Positions 3,654 through 25,016 of a DNA stretch of 41,429 nt are shown here, one piece after another; position 1 is the stretch's first letter, and the number at the start of each line of letters is the position of its first letter. A program made the position numbers and the translations under genes. Origin of the DNA: Methanoregula sp. GTDB taxonomy: Archaea; Halobacteriota; Methanomicrobia; Methanomicrobiales; Methanospirillaceae. The DNA lies in the NCBI GenBank assembly GCA_013331015.1, contig DUHF01000167.1, forward strand, positions 1 to 41,429, read 5' to 3'. The notes beneath the pieces are model-generated. The model saw nothing but the letters and a program-made list of their open reading frames with translations. It was not told the DNA's origin and searched no databases.

Positions 3654-3707
3654 TTGCGCACACTTTACAGCGGATACTATGTATTCTCAAACTGTCAACT
3701 ATCATCC

Positions 3708-4871
3708 ATGCCATACCAGATCATCGATGCCGGTGCGTACCTGAACGGGCAGGTCCGGGCTGGAATCATTACCCAGGAAGATGCTGATCTTATCCACGAA
3801 TTTTGCGAAGAGCGGAAAGCAACAAAGCATATCGCTGAGGCAACCGCCCTGGTCACTTCGAAGGGTCTATCAAAGTTTGCGCCATCGATTGCACCCTTCA
3901 AACAGTGTACGACTTTAGACATAATTAAGGGTATCAATTCCGTGGAAACAAAATGGAAACAGAACACCCGGCGGTTACGAATTTACTATCTCAAAGAATT
4001 CGCGCATTGGCTGGTAGATGAGGGGTATAATTCAACCATCAATATCAAGAAACTGGATAGCATCAAACCACCCACGGCAGACAAGGCAACAAAAACCGCA
4101 TCGCAGATGATCTCCGAAGAAAAAATAGATGAAATGATACGGTCCTGCAAGACCTCCCGGGACCGGGCATTAATCGCGTTCATGTATGAAGGGGCACTCA
4201 GGCCGATCGAAGTGCGGGAAGCAACATGGAACCAGATCACCTTTGACCAGTACGGCGCAATATTCAACACCTCTAAAAAGACCGGGAAACCCCGGTATAT
4301 CCGGCTCATCCGCTATTTCGGGTATCTCGCATCGTGGAAGGCGGACTATCACCCGGGAGTTCCCGAAGGTGATGCCCGGGTATTTGTCACGGGTCCGGGC
4401 AAAATCCTATCCCGGCAATATTTCCATGACATTATTGCCCGGGCAGCTCAGGCAGCGGGTCTTAAAGACGTGTTCCCCTACATCATCAGGCATAGCCGGA
4501 TAACTGCAATGGTCACGCAGAAGATCCCGGAATCCGTGATTAAATTGCAGGCGTGGGGCAACATCGCAACACCCATGATGGCAACCTATACCCATCTGTC
4601 CAATGACCAGATGGATGATGTTTTGTTAGAGACTGCCGGGGTCAAGCGGGTAGGACGGCCCAAGGGTCCGAGCATGAAGCCGGTTCAATGCCAGGACTGT
4701 TCGGTAATTAACGTACCGGGGGCACAGTTCTGTTACAAGTGCGGGCGTTCCTTGACCGGCGATAGTTTGACCAAGATGGAACGGATGAAACGGGATGTCT
4801 ATGAAAATCCCGATGAACTCATTGCATTCCTGCAGGACCTCAAAAAGGAGCGGGAGGGGAAGGGTCCATAA
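3708..4871 (+). CDS. Tyrosine recombinase/integrase with C-terminal zinc ribbon
   Basis: RDRALIAFMYEGALRPIE (R), KTG (K), YIIRHSR, MATYTHL (Y); CQDC...CYKC zinc ribbon. ATG 3708 preferred over TTG 3654. Confidence 0.9.
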   Translation: MPYQIIDAGAYLNGQVRAGIITQEDADLIHEFCEERKATKHIAEATALVTSKGLSKFAPSIAPFKQCTTLDIIKGINSVETKWKQNTRRLRIYYLKEFAHWLVDEGYNSTINIKKLDSIKPPTADKATKTASQMISEEKIDEMIRSCKTSRDRALIAFMYEGALRPIEVREATWNQITFDQYGAIFNTSKKTGKPRYIRLIRYFGYLASWKADYHPGVPEGDARVFVTGPGKILSRQYFHDIIARAAQAAGLKDVFPYIIRHSRITAMVTQKIPESVIKLQAWGNIATPMMATYTHLSNDQMDDVLLETAGVKRVGRPKGPSMKPVQCQDCSVINVPGAQFCYKCGRSLTGDSLTKMERMKRDVYENPDELIAFLQDLKKEREGKGP

Positions 4872-11667: not shown

Positions 11668-13032
11668 TTACGGGGATACCGTCAGTTCGTATTTTTCTGC
11701 AACTTCGATGAATGCATCAGCGAGATACCGGATTTTCTTATCCGAAAGGCCGTAGGTGTTCAGCTTCCAGGTCCGGGTTGCACCGGCAAACTCGCCCACG
11801 ATCCCACGGGACGAAAGTTCATCGCTGAGGTAGAATCCCCGCCGCTTGTGGGTCTGGGCAATGGTGTCGAAGCTGCCCGTGGTGTCGACCTTGGTGAGCG
11901 TGTGTTTTCTCGGGTACTCGGAGAGCACCCTGCTTCCTGAAATCTTCAGGAGCCGGTCGATGAAGAAGTTCGAACGCTTCACTTCATCCTCCCACTTCAG
12001 GGTCCGGGCCTTGACCGTGGGAAACGATGCCATCATCGAGAGCAGCGTCCCGCCCATCAGCGTGCAGCCGAGCATCTCGACTTCCTTGATACCGAATTTG
12101 CGTTTTGTCAGGTCACCAACCATCGCGGTTGTCCGGAGCGCCTTGGGCGCCCATTCCCCGGTCATCGCCAGTACTCCGGACGGCGCGACCGAGGCCATAC
12201 TCTTGTGTCCGGAGCCAACCACAAAGTCAGCCCCGATCTTCTTGCCATCGACCGGCATGACACCGACCGTATATGCCCCGTTGTACAGGAGCGGGATATC
12301 GTACTGGTGGGAAACTTTTGCAATCGCGGCAATATCGTGCTCGTTTGCAAACTGGTAATCATAATGATCGATCATCGTGAGCACCGGGAGTTTTCCGGTC
12401 TCAGCTTTGACCTCTTCGATCTTTTGTGCTGTTGCTTCTGCGGTCACGAGGTTCTTCTCGTTCAGCGACACTTCCCGGACAATTCCTCCGGCATTTTCTA
12501 CTGCAAGGAACTCGGTGTAGTGGGCGAGCGCTGATACGATCACCGTATCGCCTTTCCCAACCAGCGTACCAGCAACTGCCTGGAATCCCCGCCGGGCCCC
12601 CGGCACCACGCGGGCGATATCCATGTTGACGAACTTTGCAAGCTCGTCATGGAAGTCGGCAATGCCCGGCTTAGAGATCTTATCAAGCCGGAACGGTTTG
12701 CGGCAGGCGTCACACGTGGAGTACCCGTCCCCGTACGAGATGAGGGCCTTTCTGGCCTCGGTTGTCAGTCGCCCTGCCGCCTGGATAGGCTGGATGTTGA
12801 TCGCCTCCTCTTCCCGGGTCCGCAGGTCAATGGAACCTGCAATCTTTGTCACCCTGGGTGTCCCGGTCCCGGCTTCGAGGTCCGAAAGGATTGCCTTCAC
12901 GTCGGCAATCTTCTGCCGGAATGCGGCCTCCTCTTCGGGATCGAAACCGGTTGGTAACGACTCGCGGAAGAGCCCACGGACCTCTTCAAGCGCGAAGAGC
13001 GCTTCGAATGTTTTCTGGATCCTGATATTCAT
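11668..13032 (-). CDS. pscS: Sep-tRNA:Cys-tRNA synthase (SepCysS) with ~65-aa N-terminal extension
   Basis: PIQAAGRLT, GDGYSTCDAC, GARRGF, AHYT, GSGHKSMAS and EMLGCT motifs; AGGTGA RBS upstream. Confidence 0.92.
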   Translation of the reverse strand: MNIRIQKTFEALFALEEVRGLFRESLPTGFDPEEEAAFRQKIADVKAILSDLEAGTGTPRVTKIAGSIDLRTREEEAINIQPIQAAGRLTTEARKALISYGDGYSTCDACRKPFRLDKISKPGIADFHDELAKFVNMDIARVVPGARRGFQAVAGTLVGKGDTVIVSALAHYTEFLAVENAGGIVREVSLNEKNLVTAEATAQKIEEVKAETGKLPVLTMIDHYDYQFANEHDIAAIAKVSHQYDIPLLYNGAYTVGVMPVDGKKIGADFVVGSGHKSMASVAPSGVLAMTGEWAPKALRTTAMVGDLTKRKFGIKEVEMLGCTLMGGTLLSMMASFPTVKARTLKWEDEVKRSNFFIDRLLKISGSRVLSEYPRKHTLTKVDTTGSFDTIAQTHKRRGFYLSDELSSRGIVGEFAGATRTWKLNTYGLSDKKIRYLADAFIEVAEKYELTVSP

Positions 13033-13060
13033 GGTCTTTCACCTTTCTTTTTTAATTTAG

Positions 13061-13132
13061 AGCCAGCGCCCGGAATTGAACCGGGATGTAGCTGATCTGC
13101 AATCAGCCGCGTAACCACTCCACCACACTGGC
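13061..13132 (-). tRNA. tRNA-Cys(GCA), G37, U73
   Basis: Cloverleaf: acceptor GCCAGTG/CGCTGGC, anticodon arm GCTGA-TTGCAGA-TCAGC, T arm CCCGG-TTCAATT-CCGGG. Confidence 0.95.
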
Positions 13133-13139
13133 ACTCTTG

Positions 13140-13181
13140 TTCACGATTGTGAATCTTACCATACTAAATAACAATTGTGAA
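13140..13181. promoter_or_regulatory. Two putative operator sites: TTCACGATTGTGAA (13140-13153) and ATAACAATTGTGAA (13168-13181)
   Basis: Match the recurring palindrome; directly upstream of tRNA-Cys and pscS. Confidence 0.7.
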
Positions 13182-13432: not shown

Positions 13433-13446
13433 GTAACAATTGTGAA
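13433..13446. promoter_or_regulatory. Putative operator GTAACAATTGTGAA
   Basis: Recurring motif, upstream of nadA. Confidence 0.7.
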
Positions 13447-15559: not shown

Positions 15560-15631
15560 AGCCAATGCCCGGATTCGAACCGGGTTGTAGCTGATCTGCA
15601 ATCAGCCGCGTAGCCACTCCGCCACATTGGC
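15560..15631 (-). tRNA. tRNA-Cys(GCA), G37, U73
   Basis: Cloverleaf: acceptor GCCAATG/CATTGGC, anticodon arm GCTGA-TTGCAGA-TCAGC, T arm CCCGG-TTCGAAT-CCGGG. Confidence 0.95.
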
Positions 15632-15779
15632 ATTGTTTTTGTCAGCGCAATTGCACTGTATCATCGTATGTTCGGGAGCTATTTAGGGGCTGATTTACGG
15701 GCATTTTTTGCCGCAAAGTCCGGGTCGCGGAATTTCCCGGTGTCTGGCGGATCAGTTATGGCAGGGGAAAACGAAATAC

Positions 15780-15793
15780 TTAACAATTGTGAA
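15780..15793. promoter_or_regulatory. Putative operator TTAACAATTGTGAA
   Basis: Recurring motif, 26 bp upstream of the wHTH regulator ATG. Confidence 0.7.
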
Positions 15794-15819
15794 CTCTTAC
15801 GTTGTTATGGTGATCCACT

Positions 15820-16102
15820 ATGAGGGATCGTTTTTGTTGTAAACACAAACGGGAATAATAACATCCGAAGAATCGGGCACCTGCCGCCATCGGCAAAGCT
15901 CGTGTATAAAGTGCTTGAGAATGGTAGCCAGCTGACACAGAAGGATCTCATCCGCGAGACCTCCCTGCCATCCCGGACCGTGCGGTACGCTTTGAACCGG
16001 CTCAAGGATGAACAATTCCTCATCGAGCGTCATTATTTCGTTGATGCCCGGCAGAGCCTCTATGGCCTTATTCAGCCATCGAAGGAGGTGGTTGCGGTAT
16101 GA
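15820..16102 (+). CDS. Winged-helix (MarR-like) regulator, split by a +1 frameshift near 15832-15836
   Basis: GGTGAT RBS (15809-15814) and ATG 15820 give MRDRFCCKHKRE*; the +1 frame gives VVNTNGNNNIRRIGHLPPSAKLVYKVLE...LTQKDL...RTVRYALNRL...DARQSLY, with no in-frame ATG/GTG/TTG before GTG 15902. Confidence 0.75.
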
Positions 16103-16242: not shown

Positions 16243-17502
16243 TCACAACGGCTGGTCCGTGATTGTGATCCCGGCCGCAACCATCTTCTCGCGTATTATA
16301 TCGGCGACCTCGAACTGCTTCTTTGCCCGTAGCTCTTCCCGGATCTCGTGAAGCACGCTTAATGGTGCACTCGTCTCTTGCAGGAAGTTAATCCCGAGGA
16401 TCGCCCCGTACTCCTTCAATGCCCCAAGATCTCCGTTCGCCGCCAGACGCTGAATCGCTGCCAGCGCCATGGGTGTGTTGAGGTCGGCCTCCATGGCATC
16501 AATGAAAGTTTTCCGGCCTTCCTCATCCGGACCCTTATCTTTCCCGGCAATCGCCCGTATGTGCCCGAGCCCTTTTGCCGCATTGGCGAGTCCCTCATCG
16601 GTTGCCTGAAGCGGGGACCGGTAATGAGAGAGCAGGATAAAATACCGCAGGACCTCCTTGTTCCAGGTCTTCAGGGCATCACGGATGGTGATGAAATTCC
16701 CCAGCGATTTCGACATCTTCTCGCCTTTCACCGTCAGGAATCCCGTGTGCAGCCAGTACCGGACCATGGGGTGTTTTCCCTCTAAAGATTCCATCTGGGC
16801 GATCTCTGCCTCGTGGTGGGGGAAGATCAGGTCAAGTCCCCCGCCATGGATATCGTACTGCTGCCCGAAGTACTTCTCGGAGATTGCTGTATCTTCAATA
16901 TGCCACCCGGGCCGGCCCCTGCCCCACGGAGAGTCCCACGTATATTCCCCGTACTCCCCGGTCTTCCAGAGCGAAAAATCGAGCGGGTTCTGTTTTGTTG
17001 CATCCGTCACGCGGCTGACCCGGTTCGTCCCGTCCTGGCCGGACAGTTCCCCATTGCGCTCGAAGGAGTCCACGTTGAAGTAGACTCCGGTCTCCGTAAC
17101 ATAGGCCACACCACGGGCAATCAGGCGCCCCACCTGATCGATGATTTCGGGGATGTGGGTCGTTGCCCGTGCATAGTAACTGACCGCATCGATACCAAGC
17201 GCCAGCATATCACGGAAATACTCGGTCTCGAACTTCCGGGCAAGGGCCGGCTGGGAGATTCCCTCCTCCGCTGCCCGGTTGATGATCTTATCGTCAACGT
17301 CCGTGATGTTCTGAAGATAGAACACTTCTTTTCCGGTCCACCGGAGGTACTTTGTCAGTACGTCAAAGGCTACATACGTCCGGGCATGCCCGAGATGCGA
17401 GTAGTCATAGACAGTAGGACCGCAGACAAACAGGTACACCCGGTCCGGATGGAGTGTCTCTAACGGTTCAATGGTTCTTGACAACGTACTGTATAATTCC
17501 AT
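16243..17502 (-). CDS. cysS: Cysteine--tRNA ligase
   Basis: CGPTVYD, HLGH, NITDVDDKII, GRPGWHIE, DIHGGGLDLIFPHHE and KMSKSLGN; ATG 17502 (the longer ORF start runs through the tRNA). Confidence 0.95.
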   Translation of the reverse strand: MELYSTLSRTIEPLETLHPDRVYLFVCGPTVYDYSHLGHARTYVAFDVLTKYLRWTGKEVFYLQNITDVDDKIINRAAEEGISQPALARKFETEYFRDMLALGIDAVSYYARATTHIPEIIDQVGRLIARGVAYVTETGVYFNVDSFERNGELSGQDGTNRVSRVTDATKQNPLDFSLWKTGEYGEYTWDSPWGRGRPGWHIEDTAISEKYFGQQYDIHGGGLDLIFPHHEAEIAQMESLEGKHPMVRYWLHTGFLTVKGEKMSKSLGNFITIRDALKTWNKEVLRYFILLSHYRSPLQATDEGLANAAKGLGHIRAIAGKDKGPDEEGRKTFIDAMEADLNTPMALAAIQRLAANGDLGALKEYGAILGINFLQETSAPLSVLHEIREELRAKKQFEVADIIREKMVAAGITITDQPL

Positions 17503-17519
17503 TATAATCTCCCTGGTAT

Positions 17520-17596
17520 TGGACGCCGGTGGGTGGAGTCGAACCCCCAGACATTCGCTTTGCAGGCGAAGGCATTTACCGTTCTGCCACACCGGC
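17520..17596 (-). tRNA. Atypical tRNA-Cys(GCA), A37, 3' end G-T-C-C-A
   Basis: Acceptor GCCGGTG/CACCGGC, anticodon arm TTCGC-CTGCAAA-GCGAA, T arm GGGGG-TTCGACT-CCACC with one G:A mismatch. Confidence 0.85.
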
Positions 17597-18198: not shown

Positions 18199-18212
18199 TT
18201 AACAATTGTGAA
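18199..18212. promoter_or_regulatory. Putative operator TTAACAATTGTGAA
   Basis: Recurring motif, upstream of cysK-cysE-pdxS. Confidence 0.7.
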
Positions 18213-18305: not shown

Positions 18306-19238
18306 ATGACAAAAATTTACGACAATATTCTCGCAACCATAGGTAACACCCCGCTGGTCCGGCTGAACCGCATAACCGGCGGGGCCGAGGCAACCGTGCT
18401 TGCCAAGCTCGAGTCCTTCAACCCGGGCAGCAGCGTCAAGGACCGGATTGCCGTATCCATGATCGATGCTGCGGAAGCAGCAGGACAGATCAAAGCAGAT
18501 ACGATCATAGTAGAGCCCACCAGCGGCAACACCGGCATCGGACTTGCCATGGTTGCAGCAGCCCGGGGATACAAGTTCACCCTCGTCATGCCGGAGACGA
18601 TGAGCATCGAGCGGCGGAAACTTGCCAAGGCGTTCGGTGCGGAGATCGTGCTCACCCCCGGGGCCGAGGGGATGAAAGGGGCCGTTGCCAAAGCCGAGAA
18701 ACTGGCAGCCGGGAACCCGAACTACTTCTACATCCCCCAGCAGTTCAAAAATCTGGCAAATCCCGAGATCCACCGGAAGACAACCGCTGAGGAGATCTGG
18801 CGCGATACTGACGGAAAAGTCGATATTCTTGTTGCCGGCGTGGGGACCGGCGGGACGATCACCGGCATCGCGGATGTCATCGGGAAGAGAAAACCCTCGT
18901 TCCGTGCCATCGCGGTCGAACCTGATGCATCACCGGTCCTCTCCGGCGGATCCCCCGGCCCGCACCGGATCCAAGGGATCGGTGCTGGTTTTGTACCGGA
19001 CAACCTCCAGCGCGATCTTATCAGCGAGATCATCCGGGTGAAGAACGAGGATGCTTTCGACACCGCCCGCAGGCTTGCACGCGAGGAGGGCATTCTTTCC
19101 GGGATTTCCGGCGGGGCTGCCCTGCATGCTGCACTTAACGTTGCCTGGCGTCCCGTAAACAAGGGAAAGACCATTGTTGTCATACTGCCCGACAGCGGTG
19201 AACGCTACCTGAGCATCCCCGATCTTTTCCTGGAGTAA
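18306..19238 (+). CDS. cysK: Cysteine synthase A
   Basis: [45 protein letters not shown] and DSGERYLS motifs. Confidence 0.95.
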
Positions 19239-19249
19239 GAGGGTCCGAC

Positions 19250-20215
19250 ATGGTGTTTGACCGAATCCGGGAAGATATTTCTGCAATCTACGGCAAGGAC
19301 CCCGCAGCCCGATCCACGCTGGAGATCCTCTTCTGCTACCCCGGGCTCCATGCCCTCTGGTTCCACAGAAGGGCCCGCTGGCTCTTTGTCCATAACCTGA
19401 AATTCTGGGCCCGACTCGTCTCGCACATCAGCCGTTTCCTGACCGGTATCGAGATCCACCCCGGAGCAATGATTGGCCGCCGCGTGGTCATCGACCATGG
19501 CATGGGTATCGTCATTGGGGAGACTGCCGAAGTGGGGAATGATGTTCTCATCTATATGGGCGTTGTCCTGGGCGGCACGGCACTTGAAAACGTCAAGCGT
19601 CACCCGACTATCGAGGACGGCGTTATCCTTGGATCGGGTGCGATTGTCCTTGGCCCTATTGTTATCGGGAAAGGGGCCAAAGTGGGGGCTGGATCGGTTG
19701 TAGTCCGATCCGTTCCACCCGGGGCAACCGTTGTGGGTGTGCCAGGCAGGATTGCAGGACCCGAACCGGGTTCCCGAGGAGAACAGACCGAAGAGGTCAT
19801 GCCGGATCCAATGCTCCGGGTCATCAGCAGGCTGCTTGACCGGCAGAACCAGCTTGAGGAACGGCTTCGCACCATCGAACAGGCAAGGCCTCACACGGGC
19901 CCTGACGCACTGCCGCAGGAAGTTGTCTGTGAGAACGAGATCCGGAAGGCATTGAAGGACGTGATTGATCCTGAGGTTGGCATTGATATTGTGGACCTCG
20001 GGCTCATCAAGGAGATCCGGGTTACCGGAAACCGGGTGGAGATCGACATGGTCCTCACATGTAAAACCTGCCCCCTCTCTGATCATCTTTCCGACCAGGT
20101 GAGGAGAAAAGCACAGGGTGTCTGCGGCATTGATCAGGTGACGGTGAATGTCCTTGATGAGCCGTGGAACTGGGACCGGTTCGTGAAACAGCGGGGCAGC
20201 CTCCGCCAGATCTGA
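19250..20215 (+). CDS. cysE: Serine O-acetyltransferase fused to a C-terminal DUF59/SufT-like Fe-S assembly domain
   Basis: [19 protein letters not shown] and KRHPT hexapeptide region; C-terminal [20 protein letters not shown]...LT..TCP...PW. Confidence 0.9.
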
Positions 20216-22941: not shown

Positions 22942-23373
22942 TTAATGTTCGCAGGCCGAATCCTCATGTTCATGGGAGTGCGGGTTCTTCTCCTCCCATT
23001 CGGGGAGTCCCTGTTTCTTCCGGTAATCATTGATTGCCTTGTGGATTCCTTCCTCGGCAAGCACCGAGCAGTGCATCTTGATCGGGGGAAGTCCTTCGAG
23101 CGCTTCGGCCACCGCCTTGTTGGAGATCTCCCAGGCATCCTCCAGCGTTTTGCCCCGTACCAGTTCCGTTGCCATGCTGCTCGACGCGATGGCAGCGCCG
23201 CAGCCGAACGTCTTGAACTTCGCGTCGGTAATCACGTTGTCATTAACCGAAATGAAGATCTTCATGATGTCGCCGCAGACCGGGTTGCCGACTTCGCCAA
23301 CCCCGTCAGGATTCTCTATCTCCCCCACGTTACGGGGATTTTTGAAATGGTCCATGACCTTGTCGCTATACAT
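22942..23373 (-). CDS. iscU: Fe-S scaffold protein IscU/NifU
   Basis: MYSDKVMDHFKNPRN, GNPVCGD, FGCGAAIASSS and KMHCS motifs. Confidence 0.95.
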   Translation of the reverse strand: MYSDKVMDHFKNPRNVGEIENPDGVGEVGNPVCGDIMKIFISVNDNVITDAKFKTFGCGAAIASSSMATELVRGKTLEDAWEISNKAVAEALEGLPPIKMHCSVLAEEGIHKAINDYRKKQGLPEWEEKNPHSHEHEDSACEH

Positions 23374-24559
23374 TGCTATTTTCCTCCTTCCCGCCCTTGT
23401 ACAGGGGGGACATCTCGCGAAGACGGGATACCACCTTCGGCAGGACCTCCAGTACGAAGTCCACGTCCGCTTCCGTGTTTGCATCACCCAGTGTCAGCCG
23501 GAGGGAGCCATGCGCAATTTCGTGCGGAAGGCCGATTGCCAGCAGGACGTGCGAGGGTTCGAGCGATCCCGAAGTACAGGCACTGCCGGTCGATGCACAG
23601 ATCCCCTCATCATCGAGCCAGAGAAGCATGGATTCACCCTCGATGAATTCGAAACTGATGTTGATGTTGCCCGGCAGCCGTTTCTCCGGGTGCCCGTTAA
23701 GACGGGCATGGGGGATTGTTACCAGGATCCCGTTCAGGAGCCGGTCCCGGAGAGTCCGGATATGCGTATTGTGCCATTCAATATCCGCCGTTGCGAGTTC
23801 GATTGCTTTCCCCATCCCGACGATCGCGGCAATATTCTCGGTGCCTGCCCGGCGCCGGTTTTCCTGGCCCCCGCCGTGGATCAGGTTGTCAATCTTTACG
23901 CCCTTACGGATGTAGAGCGCCCCGCAGCCCTTTGGCCCGTAGAACTTGTGGGCAGAGAGCGAGAGCAGGTCGATGTTCTGCGTCCGCACATCGATGGGCA
24001 CATTGCCGATTGCCTGCACGGCATCGGTGTGGAAGGGAATCTTATGCTTCCGGGCAATTGCGCCAAGTTCCGCAACGGGTTCGATGGTACCGATCTCATT
24101 GTTGGCGTACATAATCGAGATTAGGATCGTCGTGTCCGTGATCGCACGTTCAAGGTCTGCTGGATCGATAAGCCCATATTGATCGACAGGGATGTACGTG
24201 ACCGCGAACCCCTCTCTCTCAAGATACTGGCACGTATGGAGAATGGCATGATGCTCGATTGCTGATGTTATGATATGGTTTCCCTTTTTCCGGTTGGCAA
24301 AGGCAATACCTTTGATCGCCCAGTTGTCGGACTCACTTCCTCCCGATGTAAAATAGATCTCGCCGGGTTCTGCACCGAGAGCCTTTGCAACCTGTGCCCG
24401 GGCGGTCTCGATTGCGTTCCTTGATTCACGGGCGATGCGGTAAATCGATGACGGGTTGCCAAAATGATTATTCAAGTAGGGCCACATGGCATCCGCGACG
24501 GAAGGTTTCACCGGCGTGGTTGCAGCATGATCCAGGTAAATGGTGCGTCTCTCTCCCAT
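23366..24559 (-). CDS. iscS: Cysteine desulfurase IscS/NifS
   Basis: YLDHAATT, GNPSS, SAHKFYGPKG, RAGTEN and STGSACTS motifs. Confidence 0.95.
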   Translation of the reverse strand: MGERRTIYLDHAATTPVKPSVADAMWPYLNNHFGNPSSIYRIARESRNAIETARAQVAKALGAEPGEIYFTSGGSESDNWAIKGIAFANRKKGNHIITSAIEHHAILHTCQYLEREGFAVTYIPVDQYGLIDPADLERAITDTTILISIMYANNEIGTIEPVAELGAIARKHKIPFHTDAVQAIGNVPIDVRTQNIDLLSLSAHKFYGPKGCGALYIRKGVKIDNLIHGGGQENRRRAGTENIAAIVGMGKAIELATADIEWHNTHIRTLRDRLLNGILVTIPHARLNGHPEKRLPGNINISFEFIEGESMLLWLDDEGICASTGSACTSGSLEPSHVLLAIGLPHEIAHGSLRLTLGDANTEADVDFVLEVLPKVVSRLREMSPLYKGGKEENSNV

Positions 24560-24624
24560 GACTCCTCCCACAACAATTCCGGATAAGCGGGATGTTACGG
24601 TATATTTTTGTAGTTCCGAAACGT

Positions 24625-24640
24625 ATTCACAATTGTGAAT
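24625..24640. promoter_or_regulatory. Perfect palindromic operator ATTCACAATTGTGAAT
   Basis: 16-bp perfect palindrome between divergent iscS and an HTH regulator. Confidence 0.75.
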
Positions 24641-24686: not shown

Positions 24687-25016
24687 ATGGAATCCCCTTG
24701 TCAGAGAATTGTCTGGGATGTGTTGCCCGCTATCCGGGCGGCGATTGCCGTTGAACTGGTGAAATGTGGTGTGGCACAGGTTGAAGCGGCGCGGATGCTC
24801 GAGATTGCTCCGTCCGCCGTGTCCCAGTACCTGTCCGGCAAACGTGGGTACCGCATCGAATTCGAGAACGATGTGAAACGGTCGATAGAACTTCTTGCGG
24901 AAGATCTGAAGGACGGGAAAAAGGTCAATCTTGTTAAGCGCACCTGCGAGATCTGCCGGCAACTGCGTGATGGCGACGAACAGTGCGGCGGCCCGTCCGG
25001 TACAACATCGGAATGA
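24687..25016 (+). CDS. Archaeal HTH transcriptional regulator with conserved cysteines
   Basis: PCQ..VW.VLPAIR, QVEAARMLEIAPSAVSQYLSGKRG HTH and CEIC motifs. Confidence 0.8.
   Translation: MESPCQRIVWDVLPAIRAAIAVELVKCGVAQVEAARMLEIAPSAVSQYLSGKRGYRIEFENDVKRSIELLAEDLKDGKKVNLVKRTCEICRQLRDGDEQCGGPSGTTSE

Follow-up and report, generated by a model that had tools for sequence, protein, structure and literature searches.

How is a regulator translated when the Shine-Dalgarno (SD) sequence and ATG in front of it open a different reading frame? The question is posed by a winged-helix (wHTH) gene of Methanoregula that lies within the window, the term used here for the whole 41,429-nucleotide stretch of DNA that was analysed. 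Our answer, built on comparative sequence analysis, is that ribosomes starting on a short leader very probably shift by +1 at a YUU-UGY site to yield the regulator and, given the slip, that its likely purpose is to sense Cys-tRNA.

An out-of-frame leader precedes a winged-helix gene

The genome from which the window comes is a draft, 66% complete; among named relatives a Methanoregula MAG is the closest, with 96% protein identity. The features of the leader and regulator gene are as follows.

15772-15787, + strand: putative promoter of the regulator gene, conserved in orthologs and overlapped by the operator; by eye, from the archaeal consensus, we take it to be a BRE/TATA element
15780-15793, no strand: operator TTAACAATTGTGAA, a variant of the palindrome TTCACAATTGTGAA
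15809-15816, + strand: initiation SD GGTGATCC, kept before the leader ATG and complementary to the 16S end found in five of five relatives
15820-15858, + strand: zero-frame leader ORF, translated as MRDRFCCKHKRE and stop (ATG 15820, TAA 15856-15858)
15822-15829, + strand: SD-like internal segment GAGGGATC, a candidate stimulator, whose last base is the first of the predicted E-site codon
15824-16102, + strand: +1-frame ORF of the winged-helix regulator, from frame reading and profile match, predicted to be translated from 15836
15832-15837, + strand: predicted +1 shift site from conservation, P-site TTT (CTT in relatives) and A-site TGT (Cys)
15838-15840, + strand: second Cys codon, unconserved (Cys in 92 of 223 leaders, stop in 39)

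Sequence and translations agree with an earlier note on this DNA that the SD and the ATG at 15820 open a short zero-frame ORF while the wHTH lies in the +1 frame. TGA 15821-15823 closes the +1 frame, which is then open from 15824 to 16102 and, as the note had also stated, has no early standard start, the first being GTG 15902. The predicted point at which the new frame resumes is GTT 15836, and taking TTTT as a single Phe step gives a computed product of 93 residues with the junction F-VVNTNGNNNIR. An upstream ATG at 15807 (MVIHYEGSFLL and stop) was considered as the start and rejected, since neither this ATG nor its phase is conserved.

The window has a T5 run at 15831-15835, and the earlier note had raised the prospect that reads or relatives would have T4 there and thus a continuous ORF. 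No relative examined has such a continuous T4 ORF, and no indel occurs at the run among contigs (assembled contigs rather than raw reads) from eight public runs. Contigs of X1, X2, X4 and X8 cross the run without a gap; so does an RNA-library contig, X19 (15822-16086), which is weak evidence because it begins only 9 bases before the run. The RNA runs, X19 and X20, are represented by contigs of a relative and are uninformative on level, start and strand. Together with conservation of the arrangement in 223 of 255 family ORFs, the contigs of the eight runs rule out an assembly error or a T4 at this position.

The product matches Pfam family HTH_24 (PF13412) above cut-off. A structure model (pLDDT 78) has three helices and a wing, with residues 1-12 disordered. 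Its best fold matches are wHTH proteins of the MarR type, although these cover only about half of each chain (target-normalised TM 0.40-0.47 for the top hits), a sequence search of solved structures returned weak MarR matches only, and the MarR profile search with this protein (P0001) gave no match. The regulator is thus a wHTH protein by profile and fold, but at 93 residues, against roughly 135-160 with long terminal dimerisation helices, it falls outside the MarR family proper. The family label is presumably COG2522.

The leader arrangement is conserved across the family

We gathered 369 loci from relatives, species genomes, metagenomes and pattern searches, and among them are 255 distinct stop-to-stop ORFs of the wHTH family: 223 have the out-of-frame leader and 23 begin with an in-frame Met, while the other 9, which were truncated, broken, or without the anchor motif, were left aside. 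Near-identical strains are included among the 255, so that these counts overstate independence. The out-of-frame leader with the HTH in +1, for which the earlier note had proposed a comparison of orthologs, is kept in 223 of the 255, and because the same arrangement recurs in so many distinct ORFs it is not a chance product. The out-of-frame leader is confirmed as real and widely conserved.

Named carriers of the leader are Methanoregula, Methanosphaerula, Methanoculleus, Methanospirillum, Methanocella, Methanothrix/Methanosaeta, Methanococcoides and Methanosalsum, genera that belong to four methanogen orders; complete genomes of named isolates are among the carriers. Cultured carriers with names are Methanospirillum purgamenti J.3.6.1-F.2.7.3, Methanococcoides vulcani SLH 33, Methanoculleus palmolei DSM 4273 and Methanosphaerula subterraneus EG. 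The in-frame group takes in haloarchaeal homologs and a paralog, about 50% identical, that is common in the order. Carriage is patchy, with the gene in 94 of 401 genomes of the order (E 1e-22), and in genus g63 it was found in 24 of 59 genomes and not in the other 35. Plasmid matches are partial, none covering 80% of the query, and the ten matches listed are haloarchaeal paralogs. Gene callers miss the leader, and database entries begin at downstream codons, many as forms of 66-84 residues. Within its own genome, the exact SD-ATG-YTT-TGY pattern finds only the cassette of the window; a loose scan of that genome gave 31 matches, and the five others with a long +1 frame were checked, none resembling a second case.

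In 183 of 183 distinct leaders, the ATG shares the phase of R-D-R-F-C but not that of the wHTH. Where leaders carry one to three extra codons (MTRRDRFC, MAERDRFC, MHPRSDRFC, MNSRRNRLC, MRSGRFC), the start is still in the phase of the Cys codon, which excludes a slip tied to the start codon. A four-base AUGA start and a slip at codon 2 were rejected on the same leaders and on those with other first codons.

A few loci depart from the pattern. Two near-identical ones (L058 and L169) have CGT at the slippery position with the domain intact, and L199 has a TTG start, TGT at the slippery position, and an altered domain. In L197 the leader is in frame with the domain through a linker one base shorter than that of relatives; it could reflect an error in assembly or a genuine loss, in which case the gene would be a constitutive variant. 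Methanosalsum natronophilum has an in-frame ATG version and another Methanosalsum has the leader. The Methanosalsum loci with in-frame ATG (L101, L274) and with leader (L108, L276) all lie behind a palindrome with a 3-nt spacer and form a natural gain-or-loss pair. Locus L102, titled Candidatus Dojkabacteria, is a near-exact match to L101 of M. natronophilum over the stretch shown and is likely a misbinned contig. One Methanocella genome (L256, L100) has tandem copies, two with the predicted frameshift leader and one with an ordinary in-frame start. In genus g63 (L325-L351) most leaders stop at once (MRDRFC, then stop).

Constraint is concentrated at the predicted shift site

The search pattern left both the P-site and the A-site codon free. 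Across the 223 leaders the A-site codon is nevertheless Cys in every one (TGT 182, TGC 41), so that orthologs do keep an out-of-frame Cys codon as the earlier note had expected. The P-site codon is TTT in 179, CTT in 41, CGT in 2 and TGT in 1, and YTT precedes the Cys codon in 220. These two YUU codons, UUU and CUU, are precisely the ones from which a tRNA could move on by one base and pair again with the overlapping UUU. The note had proposed that tRNA-Phe re-pairs from UUU to UUU; this step suits the 179 leaders with UUU, but the site is not UUU alone, since 41 have CUU. It had also taken two successive Cys codons as the signal, of which the first is kept in all 223 and the second is not: at that next codon 92 leaders have Cys, 43 have Arg and 39 have a stop, and tandem Cys was accordingly rejected. 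The constraint stops directly after the first Cys codon.

Substitutions were counted on a tree of 199 sequences. The T-T-G core of the shift site has undergone no changes on this tree, while third positions of conserved residues have undergone 13 to 63. The third base of the Cys codon has changed 8 times, always between T and C, an exchange that is silent in the zero frame and swaps Val and Ala in the +1 frame. The first base of YTT has changed 12 times, again only between T and C, though any base would be possible at this position as the wobble of a +1-frame Val codon. Conserved residues of the domain itself vary at synonymous sites on the same tree. UGU is used 3.5 times and UGC 12.1 times per 1000 codons in this genome; the rare U-starting codons TTA, TCT and TTG, and stop codons, never occur at the A-site position in the 223 leaders.

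Downstream of the shift site, the distance to the LPP motif ranges from 10 to 28 codons and is always in phase. Not one of 122 distinct leaders has a +1-frame stop in this linker, against 56.6 expected by shuffling, whereas 114 have stops in the zero frame and 116 in the +2 frame. No locus was dropped from the set for a +1 stop; the 11 without a leader are two cut contigs and nine in-frame homologs. By this pattern of stops, the linker is probably coding sequence in the +1 frame, and its openness lends indirect support to a trans-frame product.

No ATG, GTG or TTG precedes LPP in the +1 frame in 152 of 223 leaders, no conserved alternative start was found there among the leaders, and GTG is the first +1 codon in 39 of the 223. 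Two starts that the earlier note had named as counter-explanations fail: a protein begun at GTG 15902 would have its first predicted wHTH helix (residues 22-31) cut into, and the position of CTG 15881 is CTT, CTC, CTA or TTA in 46 of 223.

Candidate stimulatory elements

Just upstream of the site, the leader codons form a candidate internal SD-like segment that could pair with the 16S end and assist the slip. AGG-GAT-CGN and AGT-GAT-CGN are each the four best anti-SD pairings among 72 synonymous encodings, at -11.5 kcal/mol (AGG) and -9.2 kcal/mol (AGT), with medians near -4.8. The third base of AGG toggles only between G and T, with 14 changes on the tree of 199 sequences. Pairing with the anti-SD is predicted to reach the first base of the E-site codon, which leaves two bases before the P-site codon, and the spacing from internal SD to P-site codon is 8 nt. 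In a crude start set of 909 ORFs from this genome, ordinary starts have spacings of 7-11 nt. The 8-nt offset falls in that range and gives no sign of compression of the prfB kind, so the segment may hold the ribosome in place and exert no push. No stimulatory structure was found in the 60 nt after the site (median z 0.23 against mononucleotide shuffles).

Cysteine and sulfur genes surround the leader gene

The window contains three tRNA-Cys genes, sepCysS, cysS, cysK, cysE, iscS, iscU, metX, metY, thiI and moaD/moaE/moeB, which bears out the placing of the regulator gene amid a cysteine cluster. Its main context features are as follows.

11668-13132, - strand: tRNA-Cys and Sep-tRNA:Cys-tRNA synthase (regulon context)
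16243-17596, - strand: tRNA-Cys and cysteinyl-tRNA synthetase (context)
18306-20215, + strand: cysK and cysE (regulon context)
22942-24571, - strand: iscS and iscU (regulon context)

Each of the tRNA-Cys genes (13060-13132, 15560-15631 and 17524-17596) stands directly before a protein gene on the same strand, in order sepCysS, a radical SAM gene, and cysS; the third tRNA-Cys is strongly unlike the other two in sequence. The cysE gene (19250-20215) has a C-terminal extension that resembles a SUF-associated Fe-S assembly domain (TIGR02945, below cut-off). A tyrosine recombinase-like gene (3654-4871) lies near one edge of the sulfur cluster; taken together with how patchily the cluster is carried, this may point to mobility.

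The association extends beyond the window. A core sulfur gene or tRNA-Cys lies near the leader gene in 39 of 52 Methanomicrobiales loci and in 54 of 86 further loci, the latter including a few in-frame homologs, whereas paralog loci, which are shorter, have one in 0 of 12. In a panel picked by hand from high-quality genomes, 27 of the 33 that have the leader gene also have cysK, against 3 of the 32 that lack it, kin not being independent, and a close cysK is lacking in 6 of the 33. The contrast recurs within genera g1, g4, g5 and g6.

The enzyme SepCysS needs a sulfur donor, and it would follow that an empty A site at UGY reports sulfur supply. It is encoded in these organisms and makes Cys-tRNA from Sep-tRNA (PMC5424206).

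A shared operator and a second regulator

The palindrome TTCACAATTGTGAA and its variants occur in six copies in the window. Besides the copy before the leader gene, the mapped features are these.

13140-13181, no strand: two operator copies before tRNA-Cys and sepCysS
13433-13446, no strand: operator copy before nadA
18199-18212, no strand: operator copy before cysK-cysE
24626-24639, no strand: operator copy between iscS and the Cys-rich HTH gene
24687-25016, + strand: Cys-rich Cro/XRE-type HTH gene, divergent from iscS (HTH_3 below cut-off; four invariant Cys)

Of 217 leader genes, 180 have an operator in the 160 nt before them. Genus g63 has none within 75 nt before the gene, and in its complete genomes the nearest lies some 200-600 nt upstream. 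At L262 an operator variant (TTCACTATTGTGAAG) is repeated head to tail upstream of the leader, in three copies or more. Mapped operators overlie or just follow TATA-like boxes, judged by eye, at cysK, tRNA-Cys-sepCysS, iscS, nadA, thiI, metX and the leader gene. As read from the sequence, these positions have the geometry of a repressor.

The likely ligand of the operator is the Cys-rich HTH protein (24687-25016), a candidate Fe-S or sulfur-sensing repressor of the cluster. Its gene is present in 58 of 65 panel genomes and usually stands directly behind the palindrome. Operator strand-hits have a median of 8 in the 33 genomes with both regulators, 2 in the 23 with only the Cys-rich HTH, and 0 in the 9 with neither regulator or only a distant copy. 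In genomes without the leader gene a site often lies directly before the Cys-rich HTH (G001, G008, G019, G034, G044, G046, G048, G053, G105, G244, G273), and perfect sites persist in such genomes that are complete (G044, G048). No hidden leader gene was found in five genomes that keep operators and lack the gene (by profile search in four). In G403 the leader gene is present with neither a close Cys-rich HTH copy nor a site, and in G574 the Cys-rich HTH is present but an exact site is not.

Genomes with the leader gene also have many more operators (7-18 against 0-4 per strand in genus g63), and so the wHTH may bind operators itself. An in-frame wHTH paralog is directly followed by a Cys-rich HTH paralog in 10 of 13 cases, which suggests that the two families work as pairs. 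At G000:C1:4115-4710 an in-frame wHTH paralog behind a GTTAAC-N3-GTTAAC palindrome is followed by a second Cys-containing HTH, a candidate parallel two-regulator module.

The earlier note had placed the regulator gene behind the shared operator. The gene does sit there, but the site positions are repressive and the Cys-rich HTH is the likelier binder, so the part of the wHTH appears less direct than implied. Our first choice, held tentatively at slightly under even chances, is that the wHTH is an anti-repressor or co-activator. That the two proteins have separate targets is a lesser possibility, and direct repression by the wHTH is rather unlikely.

Proposed mechanism and alternatives

We consider it likely, taking the sequence evidence as a whole, that the leader slips at UUU-UGU, probably when Cys-tRNA is scarce, and so yields the regulator. 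In the first step, which we hold with high confidence, tRNA-Phe or tRNA-Leu in the P site would re-pair from YUU to UUU and decoding would resume at GYN, giving MRDRF-VVNT... (93 residues). The slip would then compete with the arrival of Cys-tRNA and in this way report its supply, translation ending at the zero-frame stop when Cys-tRNA is plentiful; this second step we judge likely. The AGG/AGT-GAT-C segment would pair with the 16S end and assist, by holding the ribosome or disturbing the E site, a step that we favor modestly. In the last and most tentative step, put at a little less than an even chance, the Cys-rich HTH would repress the cluster and the leader gene through the palindrome, and the frameshift product would relieve this repression or co-activate, for a two-step control by sulfur status and Cys-tRNA. 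In this scheme the frameshift product would help to switch on the cysteine cluster.

Several other explanations were weighed. A real slip might merely set a fixed ratio that keeps the regulator scarce, with the Cys codon doing no more than being slow. UGU is indeed rare here, and Ty1-type sites, as described, use a constitutively slow A-site codon (PMC5009743). But the commoner UGC serves in 41 of 223 leaders, TTA, TCT, TTG and stops, equally rare, never take the position, and the gene travels with cysteine genes; we regard a fixed ratio as improbable, at about one chance in nine.

The slip might instead answer another signal or have the opposite sign, responding to Sep-tRNA(Cys), to a nascent RDRF-C peptide, or to sulfur plenty, with the wHTH as the operator's repressor. 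Such a scheme would suit the repressive operator positions, the rise of operator number with the leader gene, the site over the gene's own promoter in 180 of 217, and the near-invariant leader peptide. Against it, we found no re-pairing route that needs a ribosome-bound Cys-tRNA (UGY cannot re-pair on GYN), perfect sites persist without the leader gene in complete genomes (G044, G048), and in G048, G053 and others the Cys-rich HTH gene has a site immediately in front of it. Under Cys-tRNA sensing, the wHTH as operator repressor is a paradox as well, because a repressor of cysteine synthesis made during cysteine shortage would work backwards. We give another signal or sign a somewhat smaller chance than a fixed ratio.

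There might also be no slip at all, the wHTH starting at a non-AUG codon in the +1 frame (ATC 15827, the GTG variant, or CTG 15881) and the leader acting as a cysteine-sensing uORF that gates it. AT[C/T] is near-invariant at the position of ATC 15827, GTG is the first +1 codon in 39 of 223, and mycobacterial Cys-codon leaders are described as gating downstream translation (10.1101/834739). Yet 152 of 223 leaders lack any ATG, GTG or TTG before LPP, the ATC lies inside the SD-like segment, where a ribosome paused at the Cys codon would cover it, and a start at CTG 15881 would not keep a linker of 10-28 codons free of stops. Toggling of YTT between the two re-pairing codons would also go unexplained, and initiation of this kind appears quite improbable. 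Slippage of RNA polymerase, or editing, that drops one U to give an in-frame mRNA could draw on the T5 run and on RNA data that consist of contigs rather than raw reads; it is very improbable given that 41 of 223 leaders have CTTT, a run of three T, that the sole RNA-library contig over the site is gap-free (weak evidence), and that synonymous change in the Cys codon would have no explanation. An assembly error or decayed pseudogene, for which the 66% completeness of the draft could be cited, is refuted to near certainty by conservation, the same break occurring in 223 distinct ORFs including complete genomes of named isolates, with no indel in the contigs of eight runs and with conserved domain residues that vary at synonymous sites.

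Relation to known systems

With Cys-tRNA-dependent slippage as the preferred reading, the closest counterpart is prfB. Sites in prfB have CTTT (TTTT is rare) along with a slow A site and an internal SD, and SD pairing is described as displacing the E-site tRNA (PMC12421855). Both systems have a short zero-frame ORF, CUU or UUU in the P site followed by U, a protein encoded in the new frame, and just upstream a purine-rich SD-like segment (here a candidate stimulator), with a slow A site as the (here predicted) driver of the slip. The differences, as far as prfB is described there, are several. The A-site codon is Cys UGY in 223 of 223 methanogen leaders and a UGA stop read by RF2 in prfB; the predicted signal is Cys-tRNA rather than RF2; the protein made is a transcription factor; the host is an archaeon; the majority form is UUU; the site lies at codon 5-8 rather than 25-26; and the anti-SD pairing is in a GAUC register at an 8-nt offset within the range of ordinary starts. 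The methanogen cassette would thus work like prfB, yet it is not a member, because its A-site codon is Cys and its product a regulator.

Antizyme likewise uses a frameshift as a sensor to make a regulator, as predicted here, and in Ty1 a P-site CUU is followed by a slowly decoded sense codon at the A site (PMC5009743). In that account, the antizyme, Ty1, Ty3, ABP140 and EST3 sites are eukaryotic, unlike the methanogen cassette; antizyme senses polyamines at a stop codon rather than at a Cys codon; and no sensing of a single amino acid is described for the Ty sites (PMC5009743). The mycobacterial polycysteine attenuators, leaderless sORFs, share the (here predicted) pausing at Cys codons in a short leader and an association with cysteine genes, but in the description available they free a downstream RBS through Cys tracts and RNA structure, and frameshifting plays no part (10.1101/834739). 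Methanogens keep one Cys codon in a leader predicted to be fused to the product: there is no Cys tract (92 of 223 have the second Cys), 152 of 223 lack a standard start, and no 3' structure was found in 60 nt.

For archaea, a 2021 review gives fucA1 (-1) as the only demonstrated cellular frameshift (PMC8211752), and other cases in these accounts are magnesium chelatase (-1, predicted) and haloviral tail genes including that of HSTV-2 (+1) (PMC8211752, PMC5009743, PMC3711429). The archaeal frameshifts so recorded include no cellular +1 event, none that senses an amino acid or controls a regulator, and none described across several orders. A search confined to the open literature found no description of the leader (MRDRF) or of the operator sequence. 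On balance we think it probable, though less so than the slip itself, that this four-order +1 frameshift is a dedicated Cys-tRNA sensor for a transcription factor, that with the Cys-rich HTH repressor it controls a previously undescribed cysteine/sulfur regulon, and that it is the first cellular +1 and first amino-acid-sensing frameshift in archaea.

If so, a widespread cellular +1 event with a sensory purpose would join the one demonstrated cellular archaeal frameshift, and starvation-driven slippage, usually deemed an error, would have been put to use for reading the supply of one amino acid. The locus offers a handle on how methanogens control cysteine synthesis and sulfur trafficking, with one operator and two candidate regulators named. 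The 18-base cassette is also a natural test of archaeal internal SD pairing during elongation, open directly to reporter assays.

The isc2 cluster of Methanosarcina acetivorans groups iscSU with metX, metY, nadA and the XRE-like HTH protein MA2719, and the published account, in the part available, gives no function for MA2719, no operator and no frameshifted regulator (PMC7585200). The window likewise clusters iscSU, metX, metY, nadA and an XRE-type HTH, and by position and type the HTH gene at 24687-25016 is possibly the counterpart of MA2719.
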